Assembly (NCBI GenBank): GCA_043746535.1
Contig: JAYTQW010000345.1
Span: 1 to 45,345 of the forward strand
Direction of reading: 5' to 3'
DNA: 45,345 nt
Source of the DNA: Rhodospirillales bacterium
Lineage (GTDB): Bacteria; Pseudomonadota; Alphaproteobacteria; Acetobacterales; Acetobacteraceae
Under the pieces are notes generated by a model that did no database searches, was not told the DNA's origin, and saw nothing but the letters and a program-made list of their open reading frames with translations. The position numbers and the translations under genes are program-made. Numbering within the stretch: the stretch's first letter is position 1; each line of letters starts with the position of its first letter. Of the stretch, positions 16,322 to 44,615 are shown piece after piece.

Positions 16322-16446
16322 TAGGCAAGGCCATGGGCTTTGCCCCTGGACCCCAGCAAAGGCTGAGCCTTTGCAATTCACTTGTCTTGAGAAATGGGGT
16401 TTGGGGCCTGCGGCCCCAATGGGTCGAGGGCGACGCCCTCGCCTGC
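16322..16446 (+). repeat. Structured intergenic repeat, copy 1 (four tandem GC hairpins)
   Basis: Near-identical to 31371..31495, 42170..42293 and 43834..43995. Hairpins: ggcaaggcc-atg-ggctttgcc, gcaaaggc-tga-gcctttgc, ggggcc-tgc-ggcccc, cgagggc-gac-gccctcg. Confidence 0.9.
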
Positions 16447-17363
16447 TACAACGGTGTACCGACCCCGAGCAGCGCCTCGCCCTGGCTCACCGACAGGCTG
16501 GTAAGCCGGTACAGCACGGTGCCGCTCGTCTCCGAGCGCACCGTGGCCAGCACAACGCCGAACAGGTCGCGGATCTCGCCCAGGATGTCGCCCGCCGTGA
16601 CCACCTCCGCCACCTGCTTGGCCGAATACCACAGCCCATCTGCTGGGGCGGCCGGCACCCACATGGTCATCAGCTCCACCGGGAGCGACTCGACGATGCC
16701 CTCCCGCATCCCGAGATGGCGCATGACGCGGGCGATGCCGGTGGAGAGTTGGCCCACGCTGGCCTCGTCCCACAGCCCGTTGCCGCTCACCTCGGCGATG
16801 ATGCCGGGCACGCCGACGCGGTGCGCCGCGTTGATGGTGTAGCCCTCGCCGCCGGCCGAGACGGCGACCGGCAGGCCGAACGCGACGGCCAGCGCCTGCG
16901 CCGTCGCCGAGCCGGCCGGGAACAACGAGAACGGCGCCAATGCCTCGTCCAGATCGCCGCCATGCAGGTCGAGATAGGCGTCCACCTGTGAGAACACACG
17001 GGTCACAAGCCAATCGGCCAGACGTTCGCTGACGCTGCCGTCCGGCCTGCCCGGGAACATGCGGTTCAGGTTGCGGCCGTCCTCCGGCATGACGTAGATG
17101 GCTCGCTCGCGAAAGCCGCGCATGTTGAGCACCGGCAGCACCAGCAAGGTGCCGGCGATGTCCTCCGGCCGGGTCCGCAGCAGGCGCAAGGCTGCCTCGA
17201 TCGAGCAGAACTCCGATCCATGCACCCCGGCGGTGACCAGCAGGCGCGGGCCGGAACGCGCGCCCTCGATCAGGCCGAACGGGATTTCCAGGCCCTCGAC
17301 CGGGCGCAGGGTGCCCTGTTCGTGGCGGGGCTTTCCGGTGCGCAGCGGTGGCAGCGACGACAT
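16446..17363 (-). CDS. Succinylglutamate desuccinylase/aspartoacylase (M14-like deacylase) family protein
   Basis: 305 aa starting MSSLPPL. Zinc-ligand context AGVHGSEF and LDLHGG. It is the C-terminal part of the 636-aa ORF 16446..18356, whose N-terminal extension is off-frame junk over the EamA gene. Confidence 0.85.
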   Translation of the reverse strand: MSSLPPLRTGKPRHEQGTLRPVEGLEIPFGLIEGARSGPRLLVTAGVHGSEFCSIEAALRLLRTRPEDIAGTLLVLPVLNMRGFRERAIYVMPEDGRNLNRMFPGRPDGSVSERLADWLVTRVFSQVDAYLDLHGGDLDEALAPFSLFPAGSATAQALAVAFGLPVAVSAGGEGYTINAAHRVGVPGIIAEVSGNGLWDEASVGQLSTGIARVMRHLGMREGIVESLPVELMTMWVPAAPADGLWYSAKQVAEVVTAGDILGEIRDLFGVVLATVRSETSGTVLYRLTSLSVSQGEALLGVGTPL

Positions 17364-18975: not shown

Positions 18976-19071
18976 GGGTTCCCTCCCGTTGCCCCGTTTC
19001 CGGCAGCGTAGCACCGGATCGCCTCTGCGCTACACTGGCAGGGGCGGCAGGGAGCGTGGGCCTATGCACAT

Positions 19072-19806
19072 CTATTTTCTAGCAAATGACTCAATAAGTC
19101 CGGATAGCTTTTGATTTATGTCTGCCCAATGGGGCAGGAGAGATGCGTTAAATTGGAATGCGAGGTGTATGTCGCCAATTATGTATTTTTGAGCGTTGCA
19201 TTGCTCTGTCTGAACAAGTTGACCGGAAACTGGGGTATCTACTCTGACCGCATCTATAGTTCCTGGAAAAGCGACTAGAATGCCAGAGACAGTACGCATT
19301 CGATAGAGATCATATGGTCCAGGCTCAAGTTCATCATCTTTCCACGGCCCAACGAATGCGGCGACCCGCTCTGGCTCGTCGTGCCCGACGAGCACCGCAT
19401 AGATCAGGTCAGGGTGTCTTGCGGCGGACAAGACCCGAAACTCGGCAATCCGGTTCGGTGGGATCGGCGTCATGCCGGGATAAAGAAACGCTAACTGCGG
19501 CGCATAAACCTTGCCGCATACGCCATGCCCAGATAAGCAGTAGAGTGGGTTGACGAACATCCCCACTACCATGCTGCGCGGGATGTCGAGCGTGACGTGC
19601 CCAATCGTGACCGCAACCGTAGCGTGCGACTCGGCATCGAACCCTGCGACTGAACTAGCCGGCAGCGAGTTGGCTGGCGCTACGCTCATGCCAGGATCGG
19701 ACGCCATTGAGTCAGGCGCGGCAGACCAGGCGTGACGCGGCGGCAGGCCAAATAAAAGTGCCGCCAACACCAGCGGTATGCGAAACGCTAGAACCGCCTG
19801 GAGCAT
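19072..19806 (-). CDS. Hypothetical secreted protein (ORFan, atypically low GC)
   Basis: 244 aa with a signal peptide (MLQAVLAFRIPLVLAALLFGLPPRHAWSA). I recognise no family motif. By hand count, 107 G+C in 240 nt at 19081..19320 (about 45%) versus about 75% in the phaB flank. Confidence 0.6.
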   Translation of the reverse strand: MLQAVLAFRIPLVLAALLFGLPPRHAWSAAPDSMASDPGMSVAPANSLPASSVAGFDAESHATVAVTIGHVTLDIPRSMVVGMFVNPLYCLSGHGVCGKVYAPQLAFLYPGMTPIPPNRIAEFRVLSAARHPDLIYAVLVGHDEPERVAAFVGPWKDDELEPGPYDLYRMRTVSGILVAFPGTIDAVRVDTPVSGQLVQTEQCNAQKYIIGDIHLAFQFNASLLPHWADINQKLSGLIESFARK

Positions 19807-19818
19807 AAAGAAAGGCCG

Positions 19819-29687: not shown

Positions 29688-30513
29688 GCCGAAGCTACCG
29701 AAATTCGTCGCCCCCCGTTGCATCGCCGTGGCCAACCAAAAGGGGGGCGTCGGCAAAACCACCACCGCCGTCAACCTGGCCGCCGCAATGGCGGCTCGTG
29801 GCGACCGTATCCTGCTCATCGACCTCGATCCACAGGGCAACGCCTCCACCAACCTTGGCAGCGGTCGCGGCTCCACCGAGAATGACAGCTACCGATTGCT
29901 GACCGACGCTGACGCGGCCAACTTGCTGCCACAGGCAACCGGGGTCGCCCGGCTGTCGCTTATCCCAGCCAACATGGACTTGGTGGGCGCCGAAATCGAG
30001 CTGGTCGGCATCGCCCAGCGGGAGCATCAGCTACAGGCCGCCCTGAACCGTCTCGGAGTATTGACCGAGTACCACGCCGTCGTCATCGATTGCCCGCCAT
30101 CGCTTGGCCTGCTCACCATCAATGCCCTGGTGGCGGCGGACGCCGTGCTGATCCCGCTGCAATGCGAGTTCTTTGCCCTGGAGGGCCTGGCGCACCTGAT
30201 GCGGACCATCGCCACGGTCCGTCAAAAACTCAATCCCGGCTTGCAGATCGAAGGCATCCTGCTGACCATGTTCGATCGCCGCAACAACCTGTCCGAACTG
30301 GTCGCCGCCGATGCACGCAGCTTCTTTGGCGACAAGATCCTGGAGACGGTCATCCCCCGCAACGTCCGCATCTCCGAAGCACCCAGTCACGGTCAGCCGG
30401 TTTCCACCTACGACCCACGCTCGCCCGGCGCGTTGTCCTATGCGCGCCTGGCTGAAGAGCTGAGCCAACGCCAGACGCGACATGTGCCCGCAGCACTGCG
30501 GCGGCCAGCATGA
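29671..30513 (+). CDS. parA: Chromosome partitioning ATPase ParA
   Basis: The deviant Walker A motif KGGVGKTT in the context [18 protein letters not shown], followed by [12 protein letters not shown]. Confidence 0.95.
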
Positions 30514-31373
30514 GCGGGCGTGAGGCGGGGTCACGGCTGGGGAGAGGGTTGGCATCGCTCATGGGTGACGCTTCGCTCGGCGGCGACAGCGACCGCCATT
30601 CCCGCGCCATCCCCGTGGAGTCGCTGTCGCCAAACCCGTTCCAGCCGCGCGGCCCCATCGACCCGGCCAGCCTCGACGAGCTTGTGCGTTCGGTGCGTGA
30701 GCAGGGCATCCTGCAACCATTGCTGGTGCGGCCCGATCCGCAGGCCCATGGCCGCTTCCAGATCATCGCCGGCGAACGGCGCTGGCGGGCGGCGCAACGG
30801 GCAGAGCTTGCGGAAGTACCGTGCCTCATCCGCATGATGACCGACGCGCAGGCCTCGGCGGCGGCACTGGTCGAGAACCTGCAACGCCACGATCTGAACG
30901 CCATCGAGGAGGCGGAGGGTTTCCGGCGGCTGTCAACGGATTTCGGGTTCACCCAGGACGCGCTCGCCAACGTCGTCGGAAAAAGCCGCAGCCATGTCGC
31001 CAACACGGTGCGGTTGCTCAACCTGCCTGAACAGGTGCAGGCAGCCGTCCGCAATGGCCAATTGTCCGCCGGACATGCCCGCGCGCTGTTGACACACCCG
31101 GACCCGACCGCGGCGGCGCAGGCGGTGATCGACCGCGGCCTGAACGTGCGCCAGACCGAGACGCTCGCAGGCAGCGCACAACGCGGCGAGTCGAGGCCGC
31201 CAGCCACGCCCCGGCCAGTCGATCCCGATATCCAGGCGCTGGAGCATGACCTCAGCGAACGCCTGGGCCTGCGCGTCAGCATCCGCAGCACAGGACCGGG
31301 TGGGCGGATCATCCTCAGCTATCAGACACTGGACCAGCTCGACGGCATCATTCAGTTACTTGGCCAGAGCTAG
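30510..31373 (+). CDS. parB: Chromosome partitioning protein ParB
   Basis: GRGLASLMGD, NPFQPR, LLVRP...FQIIAGERRWRAA and an HTH region. ATGA overlap with parA. The TAG stop is the first 3 nt of repeat copy 2. Confidence 0.95.
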   Translation: MSGREAGSRLGRGLASLMGDASLGGDSDRHSRAIPVESLSPNPFQPRGPIDPASLDELVRSVREQGILQPLLVRPDPQAHGRFQIIAGERRWRAAQRAELAEVPCLIRMMTDAQASAAALVENLQRHDLNAIEEAEGFRRLSTDFGFTQDALANVVGKSRSHVANTVRLLNLPEQVQAAVRNGQLSAGHARALLTHPDPTAAAQAVIDRGLNVRQTETLAGSAQRGESRPPATPRPVDPDIQALEHDLSERLGLRVSIRSTGPGGRIILSYQTLDQLDGIIQLLGQS

Positions 31374-31495
31374 GCAAGGCCAAGGGCTTTGCCCCTGGAC
31401 CCCAGCAAAGGCTGAGCCTTTGCAATCCTCTTGTCTTAAGCAATGGGGTTTGGGGCCTGCGGCCCCAATGGGTCGAGGGCCAGCCCTCGCCTACC
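31371..31495 (+). repeat. Structured intergenic repeat, copy 2
   Basis: Aligns over its full length with copy 1. The differences are in hairpin loops (atg to aag, gac to ca), in the central linker (aattcac to aatcctc, gagaaa to aagcaa) and at the right end (gcctgc to gcctacc). Confidence 0.9.
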
Positions 31496-31513: not shown

Positions 31514-32569
31514 TCATGCATTGACTCGCGCACGAGCAGCGCGTCGTGCCGCCTCCTGCGCGCAGGACAACACCGCGCGCCGTGCCAGCAACTCGGCGGG
31601 TGAGCCGGTGCTCTTGCAAGCGCGTTCGCACGCCCAAAGCTCGCTCAGTGCGTAGTCCAGGCGTGCGACGCTCCACAGTGTCATCGCGCGTGCGAATGGC
31701 GCCTGTTGCCGGAAGAACACCGGCGGCCGCAACGCGCGCCCGGCATCGGCGGCGCTCATTCCGCCGGCGACCAGCAAGGCCGCCTGACGCAGCCGCTGGA
31801 ACGCCAGCAAGGCGCCGCGAACGATCCCGACGGCGGTGGCGCCTTCGGCCATGGCCCGTTCCAGTGCCGCATCCGCATTCGCCACATTGCCTGCGGCAGC
31901 GGCCTGATAGGCGTCATCGGCCAGCCCGGCGGCATCGCCGGCGCAGCAGGCCAGCACGTCCTCAGCCGATACAGCCGTGGTCGCGCCCATATACAAAGCG
32001 AGCTTCGCCGCCTCGCCGCGAGCCGTCTCCATGCCTGGACCCGCCAGCCGGGCCAGCAATGCAAGCGTGTCCGCCTCCAGCGAAAGCCCGGCGGCACGTA
32101 GCTCCGCCCCCAACAGCTTGGCCAAGGCGGGCGGCTCCAACGGGTAGCAGGCCACCGCCGTAGCGCCCGCCGCGCGCTCGAACAGCACGCGCAGCTTGGA
32201 GCGCGGCGTCAGCGCCCCGGCTTCCAGCACCAGCAGGCCAAGTCGCGTCGATGCCGGCCCCTGGCCCTCCAGCATTGCCTGCACCGCGCCGAGCATGGCG
32301 TCACCGGCATCGCGGACGCGGACCACCATGCGGCCGCCACCCATTGGCAGGGTGGCCACCGCATCGGCCACGCCGCCGGGATTTTTCTTGATCTGCTCGG
32401 GGCTCAGTTCGGTGACCAGGAACGGGTCATCCAGTCGGCCCGCCACGGTCCGCACCAGGGTGGCCGCGCGGGCATGCACCAGGCCGGCATCCTCGCCGAA
32501 CAGCAGCACCGCCTGGATGCGGTCCGGCGCGCGCAGCAAGGCCTCGAAGCCGCGCGCATCGACCTTCAC
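31514..32569 (-). CDS. holA: DNA polymerase III delta subunit
   Basis: 351 aa with the N-terminus AVLLFGEDAGLVHARAATL...DPFLVTEL. Canonical position downstream of lptE and leuS. Confidence 0.85.
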   Translation of the reverse strand: MKVDARGFEALLRAPDRIQAVLLFGEDAGLVHARAATLVRTVAGRLDDPFLVTELSPEQIKKNPGGVADAVATLPMGGGRMVVRVRDAGDAMLGAVQAMLEGQGPASTRLGLLVLEAGALTPRSKLRVLFERAAGATAVACYPLEPPALAKLLGAELRAAGLSLEADTLALLARLAGPGMETARGEAAKLALYMGATTAVSAEDVLACCAGDAAGLADDAYQAAAAGNVANADAALERAMAEGATAVGIVRGALLAFQRLRQAALLVAGGMSAADAGRALRPPVFFRQQAPFARAMTLWSVARLDYALSELWACERACKSTGSPAELLARRAVLSCAQEAARRAARARVNA

Positions 32570-39744: not shown

Positions 39745-41766
39745 ATGGTTCACCCACCGGGTCCGCCCATGCATGACAGCCCGGCCACCGCGTCGGTGCC
39801 GTCGGGCTTAGCGCAGTCGGGCCTAGCACAGTCGGGCCTAGCGCCGTTAGGCCAGGTGCGCGACCGTTCATCGGAGCCGACGGCCAGCCATGCCGCCGGG
39901 CTGCGGTCGCAGAAGCTGCGCCTGCCGGCCCTGCTCGGCGTGCTCGGCATTGTCTATGGCGACATTGGCACCAGCCCGCTCTATGCGTTCAAGACCAGCC
40001 TCGACCATTTCCAGCACACCGGCATGAACATGCCGGAGGTGCTGGGCATCCTGTCGCTGATCTTCTGGGCGCTGATCCTGATCGTCACCTTCAAGTACGT
40101 CCTCCTGGTGATGCGCGCCGACAACCGGGGCGAGGGCGGCATCCTGGCGCTGATGGCGATGGCGCAGCGCTCCGCGTCGGGACCGCGCGTGCGGACGGCG
40201 CTCGCCTTCGCGGGCATCGCCGGCGCTTGCCTGTTCTTCGGCGACGGCGCCATCACTCCCGCGATCTCCGTACTGTCGGCGGTGGAGGGGCTGGAGGTGG
40301 CCTCGCCACAGCTCGCGACCTTCGTGCTGCCGGCCTCCGCCGTCATCATCGTCATCCTGTTCGCCGTGCAGTGGCGCGGCACCGGCAGCGTGGGCCGGGT
40401 GTTCGGGCCGGTCATGGTGGTCTGGTTCGCCGCGATCGGGCTGCTCGGGCTGGCCCAGGTGGCGCAGCACCCCGCCGTGCTGCAAGCCCTCTCGCCCAGC
40501 TACGGCGTCATGCTGTGCGTCCACTACAGGCTGGTCGCCTTCCTGGCGCTCGGCTCGGTCGTGCTGGCGGTGACCGGGGCGGAGGCGCTGTACGCTGACA
40601 TGGGCCATTTCGGCGCGCGGCCGATCCGCATGGTGTGGCTGGCATTCGTGCTGCCCTGCCTCGTACTCAACTATTTCGGCCAGGGCGCCCTGGTGCTGAG
40701 CGACCCGACCGCCGTCGCCAACCCGTTCTTCCTGATGGCGCCGCACTGGCTGCGGCTGCCGCTGGTGCTGCTGGCGACGATGGCGACGGTGATCGCCAGC
40801 CAGGCGCTGATCTCCGGCGCCTACTCGATGGCGCGGCAGTGCATGCAGTTGGGCTTCCTGCCGCGCATGACGGTGACCCACACCAGCGCCACCGAGGAAG
40901 GCCAGATCTACGTGCCGCAGATCAACACCGCGCTGATGATCGGCGTGTTGCTGCTGGTGTTCGCCTTCCGCACCAGCGACGCGCTCGCCTCCGCCTACGG
41001 CATCGCCGTCACCGGCACGTTCATCTGCACCGGTGTCCTGGCGGCGTTCGTGTTCCGCCGCCAGTTCGGCTGGTCGCGCTGGCGCGCGCTGTCGGTGTGG
41101 GGCGGCTTCTTCGTCATCGACTGCATCTTCTTCGCGGCCAACCTGCCGAAGGTGCCGGAGGGCGGCTGGGTGCCGCTGGTGCTGGGCGGCGCGCTGCTGC
41201 TGATGATGACCTCGTGGAAGCGCGGACGCGACCTGCTGTTCGCCCGCTGGAAGCAGGACAGCCTGCTGCTGGCCTCGTTCCTGGCCCGGCTGCCGCAGTC
41301 GCGCACCGTCCGCGTGCCCGGCATGGCGGTGTTCATGACCGGCAACCCGGACTACGTCCCGGCGGCGCTGCTGCACAACCTGAAGCACAACAAGGTGCTG
41401 CACGAGCGGGTGCTGTTCGTCACCATCTCCAACCTGGACGTGCCGGAGGTGGCGCCCGACGAGCGCATAGAGGTGACCACCCTGGCGCCGGGCATCCACC
41501 GCGTGCTGATCCGCTACGGCTTCATGGAAAGCCCGAACATGCCGCGCGACCTGCTGGGGCTGCGGGAGAGGGGAGTCGATTTCGACCCGATGCAGGCCAG
41601 CTACTTCCTGGGCCGGGAGACGCTGGTGCCGGCCATCGTGCCGCGCCTGCCGATCTGGCGGCTGTGGCTGTTCCTGGTGATGGCGCGCAATGCCGCCTCG
41701 GCCGTCGAGTTCCTGCGGATCCCCAGCGACCGCGTGGTCGAGCTGGGCGTCCGCATCGCGATCTGA
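39745..41766 (+). CDS. kup: Potassium uptake protein Kup (KUP/HAK/KT family); start uncertain
   Basis: [16 protein letters not shown] signature, about 12 TM helices and a cytoplasmic C-terminal domain. An in-frame GTG at 39856 would give a more typical N-terminal length. Confidence 0.92.
39801..39845. repeat. 15-bp tandem repeat x3 (gtcgggcctagcgca units) at the kup 5' end
   Basis: Units are gtcgggcttagcgca / gtcgggcctagcaca / gtcgggcctagcgcc, followed by a degenerate fourth unit. If translated, it encodes [15 protein letters not shown]. Confidence 0.9.
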
Positions 41767-41786
41767 GCCACGCAACCTGAGCCATG

Positions 41787-41813
41787 CGGGCGCCGCCGGC
41801 CGGGCGGCGCCTG
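41787..41813. terminator. GC hairpin between convergent kup and glsB (possible bidirectional terminator)
   Basis: GGCGCCGCC-ggccg-GGCGGCGCC is a perfect 9-bp stem, extendable to 11 bp. The trailing T-tract is weak (TGCTTGG). Confidence 0.45.
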
Positions 41814-41824
41814 CTTGGCTGTCG

Positions 41825-42088
41825 TCAGACGCGCCGCCGCGAGCCGCCGGCGATGGCGTGGTAGATCACCAGCACCACCACCGCGCCGACGATGGCGACG
41901 ATCATGCTGTAGATGTTGAACCCGTTGACGCCGACATGGCCGAAGAAGTTGAAGATGTAGCCGCCGACGACGGCGCCGACGACGCCCAGAAGAATGTCCA
42001 CGAACACGCCCTGGCCGCTGCCGCTCACCAGTTTGCTGGCGATGAAGCCGGCGATCAGTCCCAAGACAATCCAGCCGATAATGCCCAT
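41825..42088 (-). CDS. GlsB/YeaQ/YmgE-family stress-response membrane protein
   Basis: 87 aa (MGIIGWIVLGLIAGFIASKL...GVVGAVVGGYIF), the typical transglycosylase-associated small membrane protein pattern. The upstream part of ORF 41825..42316 merely translates repeat copy 3. Confidence 0.85.
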   Translation of the reverse strand: MGIIGWIVLGLIAGFIASKLVSGSGQGVFVDILLGVVGAVVGGYIFNFFGHVGVNGFNIYSMIVAIVGAVVVLVIYHAIAGGSRRRV

Positions 42089-42169
42089 CGCGCAACCTCC
42101 CAAGCCGGCTTCATTGCCCGCATGGCAAGCAAACGCGCAAAGCCGCCGGTCGTTGCCAGAGTGCCCGCA

Positions 42170-42293
42170 TAGGCAAGGCCATGGGCTTTGCCCCTGGACC
42201 CCAGCAAAGGCTGAGCCTTTGCAATCCTCTCTTTTAGAAACGGGGTTTGGGGCCTGTGGTCCCAATGGGTCGAGGGCGACGCCCTCGCCTGCC
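42170..42293 (+). repeat. Structured intergenic repeat, copy 3
   Basis: Full-length match to copies 1, 2 and 4. Hairpin C carries a loop c-to-t change and a stem c-to-t change giving G-U. Confidence 0.9.
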
Positions 42294-42296
42294 TTT

Positions 42297-42779
42297 CTAG
42301 GGAGCCGAGGCGCCAATCCCGGCCACGCTGGCGGTCACCGTCACCGGCGCCGCGTGCTGGAACGTCACCGTCACCGGAAAGCTGTCACCAACGCGGAGCG
42401 GGTGCGCCAGGCTCATCAGCATGACGTGCGTCCCGCCTGGCCGCATCGTCATTGTCGCATTCGCCGGCAAGGGCACCTGGCCGATGTCGCGCATCTTCAT
42501 CACGCCCCGATCGTCCTCGCTGCTGTGCAGCGTCGCCATGGTCGCGGCCGGAGTGGCGACGCCGGTGATGGCGTCGGCTGCGGCACCTTCCTTCACGACG
42601 AGATAGAGGGCGCCATTGGTGACGTCGCCCGGCGTGGCCCGTGCCCATGCGGTCACCATCGGCGCCTCGCCCGCCACGGCGGCACCCGCCAGCAGCAGCA
42701 TGGCGGCGATGCAGGCCCGGTTGGCGATGGCCCCCATGATCGGGCGTTCCATGATCGGGTGTTCCTGGGCGATGGTCAT
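42297..42779 (-). CDS. Periplasmic copper chaperone PCu(A)C (DUF461)
   Basis: Signal peptide, GALYLVVKEG, and a Met/His-rich copper motif region (MATLHSSEDDRGVMKMR...GGTHVMLM). The start overlaps the sco1 stop (ATGA). Confidence 0.88.
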   Translation of the reverse strand: MTIAQEHPIMERPIMGAIANRACIAAMLLLAGAAVAGEAPMVTAWARATPGDVTNGALYLVVKEGAAADAITGVATPAATMATLHSSEDDRGVMKMRDIGQVPLPANATMTMRPGGTHVMLMSLAHPLRVGDSFPVTVTFQHAAPVTVTASVAGIGASAP

Positions 42780-43381
42780 GACAGATGGCGTTTGATGTCG
42801 GCGGCCATTGCCTCGGGTGGCTCGTCGGCGCGGATCGGCGCCACGAACGCGCCATCCGGCCCCATCAGGTACAACAGCGAGCTATGGTCCATGGTATAGT
42901 CGAGCGGACCGGGGCCGGTACGGTGCTGCGCGTAATAGACCCGGTAGGCGCGCGCCACCGCCGCCACCTGCTCCGGCGTGCCGGTCAGGCCGATCAGGCG
43001 AGGCGAGAACGCGGCGACGTAGTCATGCACCAGCTTCGGCGTGTCGCGCTGCGGGTCGATGCTGATGAACACCGGCTGCACCTTGGCGGCATCGGCTCCA
43101 AGCTTGTCCAGCGCCGCGGCCATGTCGTTCAGCGTGGTCGGGCACACGTCCGGGCAGAAGGTGTAGCCGAAGTAGATCAGCGCGAAATGGCCGCGCAGGT
43201 CGCGCTCGGTCACCGTATGGCCGCCGCCGTCCTCCAGCGTGAACGGCCCGCCGATGTCCATTGCCGAGTTCCCGTCCGGTCCAGGCCGCGTGGCGGAGAA
43301 CCACAGGATCGCCGCCACCGCGACCAGCGCCACGGGTGCGGCCACCAGCAAAGGACGGCGCCAACCGAAGGCCAGGGCCAT
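42776..43381 (-). CDS. SCO1/SenC-family copper-binding thioredoxin-like protein
   Basis: 201 aa from MALAFGW with GGAGG 5 nt upstream. TM anchor, the CxxxC motif (FGYTFCPDVCP) and conserved DHSS. The ORF extension to 43552 runs through the tRNA. Confidence 0.9.
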   Translation of the reverse strand: MALAFGWRRPLLVAAPVALVAVAAILWFSATRPGPDGNSAMDIGGPFTLEDGGGHTVTERDLRGHFALIYFGYTFCPDVCPTTLNDMAAALDKLGADAAKVQPVFISIDPQRDTPKLVHDYVAAFSPRLIGLTGTPEQVAAVARAYRVYYAQHRTGPGPLDYTMDHSSLLYLMGPDGAFVAPIRADEPPEAMAADIKRHLS

Positions 43382-43421
43382 CACCGCCTCCATCCAGAAA
43401 GGAGAATGCCAAGAAGGCAAA

Positions 43422-43497
<76 letters not shown>

Positions 43498-43523
43498 ACG
43501 AGCCGCAAGCTGCGGGAGGCGCG

Positions 43524-43552
43524 CACATACCGCGCCGCCACGACGGGGGCAA
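43524..43552 (-). promoter_or_regulatory. Possible sigma70-type promoter for tRNA-Ala
   Basis: On the minus strand, TTGCCC, a 17-nt spacer, then TATGTG. The -10 element ends about 26 nt upstream of the mature tRNA 5' end. Confidence 0.25.
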
Positions 43553-43572
43553 GGGGCGGTGCCGAACTAACC

Positions 43573-43836
43573 ATGGCGACCACGCCCCCCGACGATAGCT
43601 GGCCGCCCAGCTCCGAGCGCGCCGCCGCCAGCAACCTCACAGCCTTCGTCGAGTGGCTGCGCGCCACCGGACGCGACCCGGACGCAACGCCCGCACGATG
43701 CCGCACCCGCGCGGGCCGGGACGCCGACGACTGGCGCCAGCATGTGGCGGCGTTCGCAGGCTTGCCGGCGGCCACGACGCCAGCCGAGATCGACGCCATC
43801 GCCGCCGCATTGTTCGCGGACGAGGCGCCGGTATAG
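43573..43836 (+). pseudogene. 87-aa ORF, possible 5' remnant of an acetoacetyl-CoA synthetase-like gene
   Basis: WPPSSERAAASNLTAFVEWLRATGRD resembles the N-terminal W-x-P...S-x-L-x-x-F pattern of acetoacetyl-CoA synthetases. The ORF is terminated by the TAG that begins repeat copy 4. Confidence 0.3.
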
Positions 43837-43995
43837 GCAAGGCCATGGGCTTTGCCCCTGGACCCTAGCAAAGGCTGAGCCTTTGCAATCCTCTCCTTTA
43901 AGAATGGGGTTTGGGGCCTGCGGCCCCCCACTCTTTAAAAAATGGGGTTTGGGGCCTGCGGCCCCAATGGGTCGAGGGCGACGCCCTCGCCTGCC
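43834..43995 (+). repeat. Structured intergenic repeat, copy 4 (internal duplication of the hairpin C module)
   Basis: Same as the other copies, but aatggggtttggggcctgcggcccc occurs twice, separated by ccactctttaaaa. Length 162 bp. Confidence 0.9.
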
Positions 43996-44000
43996 TGTCC

Positions 44001-44615
44001 CTACGCCAGCAACACCCCATGCTGGCGCAGGAACCCCAGCAGCGGCAACAGCGGCAGCCCGAGGATAGCGGCGTGTTCCCCGCTCACGCTGTCGAACAAC
44101 TGCAATCCCAGGCCCTCCAGCCGGTACGCGCCGACGCAGGCCAGCAGCGCGGCGCCCTCGGCCTCCAGGTAGGCGTCGAGGAAGGCGTCGGAGAAGCGGC
44201 GCATCGTCAGCAGCGGCCGGGCGACGTGGTGCCAGACGCGCTGGTTGCCGCGTTGGCAGGCCACTGCGGTCATCAGCGTGTGCGGCTGGCCGCGCAGGGC
44301 CAGCAGGTGGGTCCGCGCCTCGGCCAGCGTCGCCGGCTTGTCGAACCAGCGCCCGTTGCATACCAGCAGCTGGTCGGCGCCGATCACCAGCGCATCCGGC
44401 CATGCGCGCGCCACCCGCGCCGCCTTCAACTCGGCCAGCAACAGCGCGGTCTCCTCCGGGCCGATGCCTTCCGCGCGGGCGCTGCGCCTGATCTCGTGCT
44501 CGTCGATCGCGGCGGGGCAGACCTCGACGACGACGCCCGCCGCCGCCAGCACCGCCCGCCGCGCCGTGGATGCGCTCGCCAGCACCAGCGCCGGATGCGG
44601 GCGCTGCCAGCTCAC
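44001..44615 (-). CDS. maf: Maf-family nucleoside triphosphate pyrophosphatase
   Basis: 204 aa from a GTG that overlaps the upstream stop (GTGA). [22 protein letters not shown] and AYRLEGLG blocks. Confidence 0.88.

Follow-up and report, generated by a model that had tools for sequence, protein, structure and literature searches.

The DNA analysed here (the window) is a 45,345-nt stretch of contig JAYTQW010000345.1 from a Rhodospirillales bacterium (GenBank assembly GCA_043746535.1; G+C content, 69.5%). The ParB protein it encodes shares 63% identity with the Rhodovastum atsumiense protein, and the host is therefore an uncultured member of, or a neighbour to, the Acetobacteraceae. Four intergenic spacers of the window hold copies (c1 to c4) of one noncoding element, 124 to 162 nt long and built of four GC-rich hairpins. 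Here, we report that this element is probably the short form (~125 bp) of a large, noncoding, non-autonomous family of palindromic mosaic repeats, akin to REPs (repetitive extragenic palindromic sequences), to BIMEs (bacterial interspersed mosaic elements), and to MITEs (miniature inverted-repeat transposable elements), whose history combines spread, constraint at the DNA level, and persistence at gene 3′ ends. The family resides in chromosomes of Acetobacteraceae and related Alphaproteobacteria of acidic peat and soil. It is an apparently undescribed family within a known class, the bacterial intergenic palindromic repeats, and not a new type of system.

Copies in the window

The first-pass annotation of the window had listed four intergenic plus-strand copies, and their coordinates hold (Table 1): an nhmmer profile and blastn recovered these four and no others in the window (E values of 1e-42 to 1e-44 for c1 to c3). 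All four align over their whole length, with pairwise identities of 90 to 94%. Copy c4 gave two nhmmer matches, with profile positions 61-98 present twice, and is longer than the other copies because the linker and hairpin 3 are duplicated in tandem (38 nt). Tandem Repeats Finder did not report this duplication, though alignment and profile search show it. In the alignment it is missing from the orthologous c4 of a related genome (relative B, GCA_043745815.1), and it is therefore of recent origin in the window lineage. A covariance model found no extra copies in 10 kb to the left and ~5.9 kb to the right of the window, giving a density of four intergenic copies in ~61 kb. The same DNA is present in the ENA metagenome scaffold ERZ28573575 scaffold_375 and in a 96-kb contig of ERZ27314304.

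Hairpins, ends, and covariation

The four hairpins have 3-nt loops and are flanked by AAGG/ACCC, CCCA/AATC, GGTT/ATGG, and GGGT/CCTG; the stems open with G·C or C·G pairs, as read from the sequence. Folding z-scores were −5.0 for DNA and −3.8 and −4.0 for RNA of the plus and minus strands. Hairpins 2, 3, and 4 are as first annotated. For hairpin 1, the window copies reach their minimum free energy in the fold originally proposed (GGCAAGGCC-atg-GGCTTTGCC), but the family uses another register. Over 14 short-form copies from different genomes, the GGCAAGGCC/GGCTTTGCC register was only 76% paired, no better than shuffles. In the CCAGGGGC-ttt-GCCCCTGG register, pairing reached 96%, and both partners had changed in four of the pairs. 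RNAalifold independently recovered the same four hairpins, including the CCAGGGGC/GCCCCTGG register. The alternative fold wins in the window copies because their CCAGGGGC/GCCCCTGG stem carries a mismatch (T·C; A·C in c2).

Taken over the same 14 copies, 97.9% of cells in the four-hairpin structure form standard pairs. Pairs changed on both sides number 11, against 4.3 in shuffles (0 of 500 shuffles reached the observed value), and sliding the stem partners by 1 to 3 columns left pairing at just 28 to 56%. Stem-preserving covariation, the check suggested by the first-pass annotation, is present. Copies recovered by the covariance model alone carry compensated variants of hairpin 2 (CCAAAGGC/GCCTTTGG and CCAAGGGC/GCCCTTGG).

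Single mismatches were counted in 552 family hairpins with the elements co-oriented, and G·T/T·G (36) and A·C/C·A (34) were found about equally often. An RNA selected on one strand is expected to tolerate G·U but not A·C; the balance found here agrees instead with palindromes that are maintained at the DNA level or are relevant on both strands. The symmetry points to hairpins that would be constrained as DNA palindromes rather than as one RNA strand.

The element has terminal inverted repeats, and these are longer than first described. Its right end, GGGT-CGAGGGC-gac-GCCCTCG-CCTGCC, corresponds in inverted orientation to GGCAAGG-CCATGGGC-ttt-GCCCCTGG-ACCC at the left, over ~30 nt with ~70% complementarity, and each end is itself one hairpin. 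Inverted ends of 13 to 28 nt or more were seen in relatives. The left and right halves are mutually inverted, with the linkers ACCCC and AATCC conserved; the units are self-symmetric, so that unit orientation is poorly defined. Across the family, the left end follows the plan (N-AAG)n-GG-CCAGGGGC-nnn-GCCCCTGG, and the right end has the same hairpin, then CCTT-(NCTT)n (end hairpin motif, AAGGCCAGGGGC; outer end motif, GGGCAATCGGGTGAAG). The interior consists of a hairpin that is highly conserved, AGCAAAGGC-nnn-GCCTTTGC-AATCC, and of a third hairpin, with a linker of variable sequence between the two.

Table 1. Copies of the element in the window, parts of copy c1, and neighbouring genes
Feature	Positions	Strand	Remarks
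c1	16322-16446	+	125 nt; ortholog in relative A, L146 10912-11045
c2	31371-31495	+	125 nt
c3	42170-42293	+	124 nt; ortholog in relative B, L142 3161-3286
c4	43834-43995	+	162 nt; orthologous 125-nt copy in relative B, L142 1547-1676
c4 tandem duplication	43890-43965	+	Two 38-nt units (43890-43927 and 43928-43965), each the linker with hairpin 3
c1 hairpin 1, family register	16331-16349	+	CCATGGGC-ttt-GCCCCTGG, one T·C mismatch
c1 hairpin 1, register first annotated	16324-16344	+	Alternative fold
c1 hairpin 2	16356-16374	+	GCAAAGGC-tga-GCCTTTGC, then AAT(T/C)C; most conserved core of the family
c1 linker	16375-16401	+	Variable, T-rich, plus GGGGTT leading into hairpin 3
c1 hairpin 3	16402-16418	+	TGGGGCC-tgc-GGCCCCA
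c1 hairpin 4	16425-16441	+	CGAGGGC-gac-GCCCTCG; with CCTGC(C), the right terminal inverted repeat
Left of c1: Metallophos gene	stop 16290	+	
Right of c1: AstE/AspA-like deacylase gene	stop 16446-16448	−	Stop CTA overlaps the element's last base; convergent
Left of c2: parB	30510-31373	+	Stop codon is the element's first three bases (TAG)
Right of c2: holA-like gene	stop 31514-31516	−	Convergent
Left of c3: Transgly_assoc/YeaQ-like gene	~41830-42094	−	5′ end toward c3; Pfam E value, 5e-14; annotated in relatives too
Right of c3: PCuAC copper-chaperone gene	stop 42297-42299	−	Stop 3 nt past the element; co-directional pair
Left of c4: small open reading frame	43573-43836	+	Without Pfam match; ends in the element's TAG
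Right of c4: maf	stop 44001-44003	−	Stop 5 nt past the element; convergent if the small open reading frame is real

Breadth of the family

The family was searched for with the 22-nt hairpin-2 core as the pattern, in a free-loop version for metagenomes. The core was found at 12 loci in 9 genome bins, mostly of Acetobacteraceae (Acidocella, Rhodovastum, and others), and the free-loop core at no fewer than 120 loci in JGI metagenomes, with two more in IMG/VR. Contig ends lie within 150 nt of 44 of the 135 listed matches, against 12.8 expected (p ~1e-13), and in another assembly of the organism that the window comes from, the contig ends 32 nt past parB. These breaks at the element indicate that it is a multicopy repeat in the source genomes.

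Short-form relatives share the architecture of the window element. Most of the matches listed are long forms of 300 to 400 nt, whose arms each carry additional hairpins and whose central stem (median, 50 bp) is 94.8% paired, although its distal 25 nt are only ~54% identical between elements. Since the last hairpin and the ends are common to both forms, the short form looks as though it was derived from the long form by internal deletion. The outer inverted repeats often extend further out, as seen in the family-wide target-site search (for example, GGGCAATCGGGTGAAG...CTTCACCCGATTGCCC).

Three side observations concern the same matches. The long-form central stem was seen at L018, L021, L025, L094, L098, L113, L128, and ~20 other metagenome loci, 0 to 200 nt 3′ of the AGCAAAGGC...GCCTTTGCAATCC core. 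A symmetric subfamily at L037 (3176-3295 and 5506-5622), whose arms are near mirror images around AATCC-att-GGATT, gives scores on either strand and is present three times in a single 8.6-kb contig. Finally, one short-form copy lies in a 315-kb contig binned as Solirubrobacterales (Actinobacteria) (L003, CAVOOS010000025.1), and two copies lie in IMG/VR "viral" contigs (L135 and L136); these could reflect wrong binning, chromosomal DNA called as prophage, or a family that has spread horizontally.

Site history in related genomes

Two sister genomes were compared with the window: relative A (ERZ27314308 contig/GCA_043742145.1; 93 to 96.5% DNA identity to the window, 90% at third codon positions) and relative B (86.7% DNA identity, 77 to 81% at third codon positions). 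The c1 site has a full copy in relative A, and the c3 and c4 sites have copies in relative B with the same junctions. With three of the four sites occupied in sister genomes, c1, c3, and c4 are therefore old residents that predate the split, rather than MITE insertions of recent date.

At the c2 site, relative A retains a 45-nt remnant, TAAGCAAGG...CCTGCTTA (window 31371-31395 versus L137 10865-10909). Its homology to the window ends ~22 nt past the parB stop, where rdgB-rph-hrcA is found and not holA-lptE-leuS; the gene-order break at parB thus falls inside the c2 element. The parB stop codon is the element's TAG in the window and the remnant's TAA in relative A, and a more distant ParB protein is one residue shorter and ends at its own TGA. 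Neither the c2 site of a distant relative (L140), in which parB and holA overlap, nor the c3 site of another (L145), with a 75-nt spacer, holds an element. The family inserted and was lost over time.

Copies at the same site are about as similar as third codon positions are (92.8% for c1 and relative A, 76.7% and 86.4% for c3 and c4 and relative B), and the c3 and c4 copies within relative B are 73.6% identical to each other. A 12-nt left end (TAGGCAAGGCCA) is common to all four window copies but not to the orthologs, which begin CAGGAAAGGCCA, AGAGAAGGCCG, and TAGGCAAGGCTA. The window copies are much more alike than the split from relative B allows, and homogenisation in the window lineage is the simplest reading. 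These identities suggest that the window copies may have been homogenised by gene conversion or master-copy replacement, with free decay in relative B.

Target sites and database searches

The element has terminal inverted repeats, small size, no coding capacity, and presence/absence differences between genomes, as MITEs do; it does not have a target-site duplication flanking each copy. A left flank of TA (TAGGCAAGG), described at first as constant, is present in 4 of 4 window copies as part of the local consensus end. It is not a target-site duplication, as orthologous copies in the sister genomes start otherwise, opening with CAGGAAAGG or AGAGAAGG and without the left TA. After the right end, TA follows c1 alone, so that c1 is the only copy with TA at both ends. 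No matching direct repeats were found at c2 to c4, at the orthologous copies, or family-wide.

The window and 16 kb around it hold no transposase gene, in agreement with the first-pass annotation for the window itself, nor any coding capacity in the element or any gene for a REP-associated tyrosine transposase (RAYT, a Y1 transposase). All-versus-all clustering of 833 open reading frames from ~130 loci showed only generic families recurring (ABC transporters, binding proteins, and dehydrogenases): no RAYT or other transposase gene recurs beside the element, and no full-length parent element was seen. Likewise, no insertion sequence with the same ends was found among the ~130 loci or in the plasmid and phage collections.

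The element was initially left without a named family, and the searches agree. Rfam at gathering score matched only a tRNA-Ala in the window and nothing on 16 related loci, and in E-value mode c1 gave chance-level matches. The short and long forms matched nothing similar among the 72,556 plasmids of PLSDB except for one 48-nt match in an uncultured record, and phage records gave no match. No description of the element was found in the literature searched (by sequence, MITE/REP in Acetobacteraceae, and RAYT in Alphaproteobacteria).

Comparison with known repeats

The element resembles REPs and BIMEs in that these are short, GC-rich, extragenic palindromes present in many copies as mosaics of units and conserved linkers, often paired in inverted orientation so that larger structures can fold, and mostly located after gene 3′ ends. 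Gene conversion was reportedly proposed for REP evolution by Higgins et al. in 1988. It differs from them in having no unpaired GTAG or CGTC tag, loops of 3 nt, stems opened by G·C pairs, and no RAYT gene in sight, and in combining hairpins of three different sequences within a fixed unit of 125 nt. REPs of the CGTC type, by comparison, carry the tag CGTC (TGTC/CCTC), 8- to 9-bp stems opening with A·T pairs, and loops of 4 to 5 nt, and this alphaproteobacterial type is reported missing in Acetobacteraceae (PMC3733652). RAYT genes are typically single-copy (PMC5581495). Effects of BIMEs on mRNA stability and transcription attenuation have been reported (PMC3733652, PMC3738161); such REP/BIME effects are by-products for the host.

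Likeness to the Correia/NEMIS elements, the MITEs of Neisseria, lies in the size (100 to 160 bp), terminal inverted repeats, noncoding sequence, position next to genes, size variants from internal deletion, and ends able to supply stop codons. Those elements, however, have a 26-bp terminal inverted repeat of defined sequence with TA at both ends. The window element has the right-end TA in c1 only and no identifiable parent insertion sequence, its ends are self-complementary hairpins, and its copies are old and shared between genomes.

Among alphaproteobacterial repeats described so far, the closest analogues are the RIME and Sm-repeats of Sinorhizobium meliloti, likewise intergenic mosaics of palindromes. 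They belong to another host family and are set apart by description and not by consensus sequence; the window element gave no blastn match in PLSDB, which presumably includes the S. meliloti megaplasmids. ERIC/IRU elements of enterobacteria, found in intergenic regions that are transcribed, are imperfect palindromes of ~125 bp whose size varies through internal insertions or deletions. Compared by description, ERIC is one long imperfect palindrome and the element a string of local hairpins, and the hosts are unrelated. RIME is present in 209 copies in S. meliloti 2011 and is transcribed (PMC3738161).

Gene context

Genes were called crudely from third-codon-position G+C across the family, and the strands of the flanking genes were (+,−) in 12 cases, (+,+) in 12, (−,−) in 9, and (−,+) in 13. 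The chance that 4 of 4 window copies are co-oriented is p = 0.125. From these two results, convergent context and uniform orientation are not family properties; the uniform plus orientation first noted describes the window, and the family occurs in all four gene contexts at similar frequency. Many family copies abut gene 3′ ends.

Three window copies had been placed between convergent gene ends. That count stands with a reservation: c1 and c2 are clear cases, c4 is one only if an unannotated open reading frame is real, and c3 lies between two minus-strand genes. A plus-strand open reading frame ending in the TAG of c3 (41690-42172; 160 amino acids) was rejected as spurious, as its codon-position G+C of 0.78/0.57/0.66 is noncoding and the real gene is on the minus strand. 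The open reading frame left of c4 (87 amino acids from ATG; called as 126 amino acids in the assembly) ends at the c4 TAG in both the window and relative B and has a high third-position G+C. We take it to resemble the N terminus of acetoacetyl-CoA synthetase, and it may be a gene fragment left by rearrangement at the element. A tRNA-Ala(GGC) gene lies 336 nt left of c4 (43422-43497, minus strand); the open reading frames that overlap it (42776-43552, minus strand, and 43261-43836, plus strand) are therefore wrong or over-extended.

Interpretation

The element is best explained as a member of a repeat family that spread in the past, given that its sites differ between distant relatives and that assemblies break at it. 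Copies would have been moved in trans by an enzyme recognising hairpinned single-stranded ends, in the manner of RAYTs or of IS200/IS605-type Y1 transposases. They would then persist at the extreme 3′ ends of genes, where insertion is presumably of little harm, and the TAG- or TAA-bearing ends may replace lost stop codons. As a side effect, the stacked GC hairpins probably slow down 3′ exonucleases there and hinder read-through, and dispersed copies may be kept alike within a genome, most simply by gene conversion.

Several points weigh against this interpretation. No mobilising enzyme was found in the DNA searched, and the transposition step rests on analogy; there is no consistent target-site duplication, and the defining REP tags GTAG and CGTC are absent from the element. 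Because hairpin 2 served as the search pattern, part of its strong conservation is due to ascertainment. Mismatches that are symmetric between the strands are also compatible with an RNA function if either strand is transcribed. Concerted evolution rests on three orthologous pairs, and the identity figures would be the same if the window lineage had been under purifying selection for function and relative B had undergone decay. The crude gene calls miscalled the neighbours of c4, which weakens the context tally. Lastly, the source genome was covered over ~61 kb, and genome-wide copy number and orientation lie outside this stretch.

Among the alternatives, a selected cis-acting RNA module of the 3′ untranslated region is somewhat unlikely. 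Its GC hairpins would either end transcription, like the U-tract-less terminators that have been proposed in high-GC bacteria, or stop 3′ exonucleases; purifying selection would keep the copies alike. Such a module would account for the distance of 0 to 18 nt between the right end and a minus-strand gene's stop codon in 4 of 4 window copies, for the many family copies at gene 3′ ends, for the very stable hairpins, and for window copies that changed less than third codon positions; RIME and BIMEs are transcribed, and roles of BIMEs in attenuation and mRNA stabilisation have been reported (PMC3738161, PMC3733652). However, no T-run follows any hairpin on either strand of the four copies (the T-rich linker starts 5 nt after hairpin 2 and is interrupted), so that no hairpin is a canonical intrinsic terminator and the terminator considered at first is not supported. 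Moreover, convergent, co-directional, and divergent contexts and both orientations are about equally frequent in the family, G·U-type and A·C-type mismatches are equal, hairpin 2 is decaying at about the neutral rate in the orthologs of relative B, and most of the c2 copy was lost in relative A. A trans-acting small RNA gene family, or another structured noncoding RNA on the plus strand, is highly improbable. The four-hairpin fold with covariation and the shared strand of all window copies would fit it, but promoter scans at all four copies found no promoter-like site, Rfam gave no match, and the element is wedged against or overlaps the stop codons of converging genes. The covariation, moreover, is of the sort seen in local palindromes, which fold equally on both strands, and the mismatch types lack the strand asymmetry of an RNA selected on one strand; the small RNA named as a possibility in the first-pass annotation is disfavoured by this.

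A classical MITE that is currently active, derived by deletion from an insertion sequence (such as an IS630/Tc1-like one, which duplicates TA) and moved by cut-and-paste through that sequence's transposase, encoded elsewhere in the genome, is quite improbable. The small noncoding unit with terminal inverted repeats, the short and long size classes, the TA that adjoins the left end of each of the four copies and, in c1, the right end too, and the varying presence among distant relatives all speak for it. Against it stand the right-end TA in c1 only, orthologs that lack the left TA, the lack of family-wide direct repeats, of a recurring transposase or full-length parent in ~130 loci, and of anything similar in the 72,556 plasmids, and three of four sites that are older than the split from the sister genomes, with no sign of recent movement. 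A further, unlikely proposal is that the element and its long forms may be acted on by a recombinase or transposase system of Acetobacteraceae that is hairpin-specific and so far unrecognised, one that resembles REP/RAYT but uses other signals and that both moves the copies and actively homogenises them within a genome. If true, such a system would explain how the ~50-bp stem of the long forms stays 95% paired despite a nearly free sequence.

Read as a palindromic mosaic repeat family, the element explains where assemblies of peat and soil Acetobacteraceae break and accounts for many "hypothetical proteins" that are spurious, with translations of the type ...DCKGSAFAGG.... It also marks sites of gene-order change, such as the parB break in relative A, and it extends REP/BIME-like mosaics to a bacterial family reported to be without CGTC REPs. 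Orthologous and paralogous copies can be compared, which makes the concerted evolution of dispersed palindromes measurable. The most unusual part is the long forms, with a central stem that is paired but variable in sequence; the other notable feature is the homogenisation within a genome.

Other observations

Just past the right end of the window, hemE (URO-D) is divergent from the kinase/pyrophosphorylase-maf genes across a spacer of ~320 nt (L149 3627-5880). Together with gidB-parA-parB in the window, hemE suggests that a replication origin is close by, and the whole window may lie on one replication arm; the GC skew of the window is too weak to place the origin or define replication orientation. 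Between c1 and c2, a stretch of ~830 bp (window 19067-19818 versus L146 7463-8296) is unaligned with relative A, where it holds an alpha/beta-hydrolase gene, and its flanks are ~96% identical; this gene may have been replaced or may have diverged fast.

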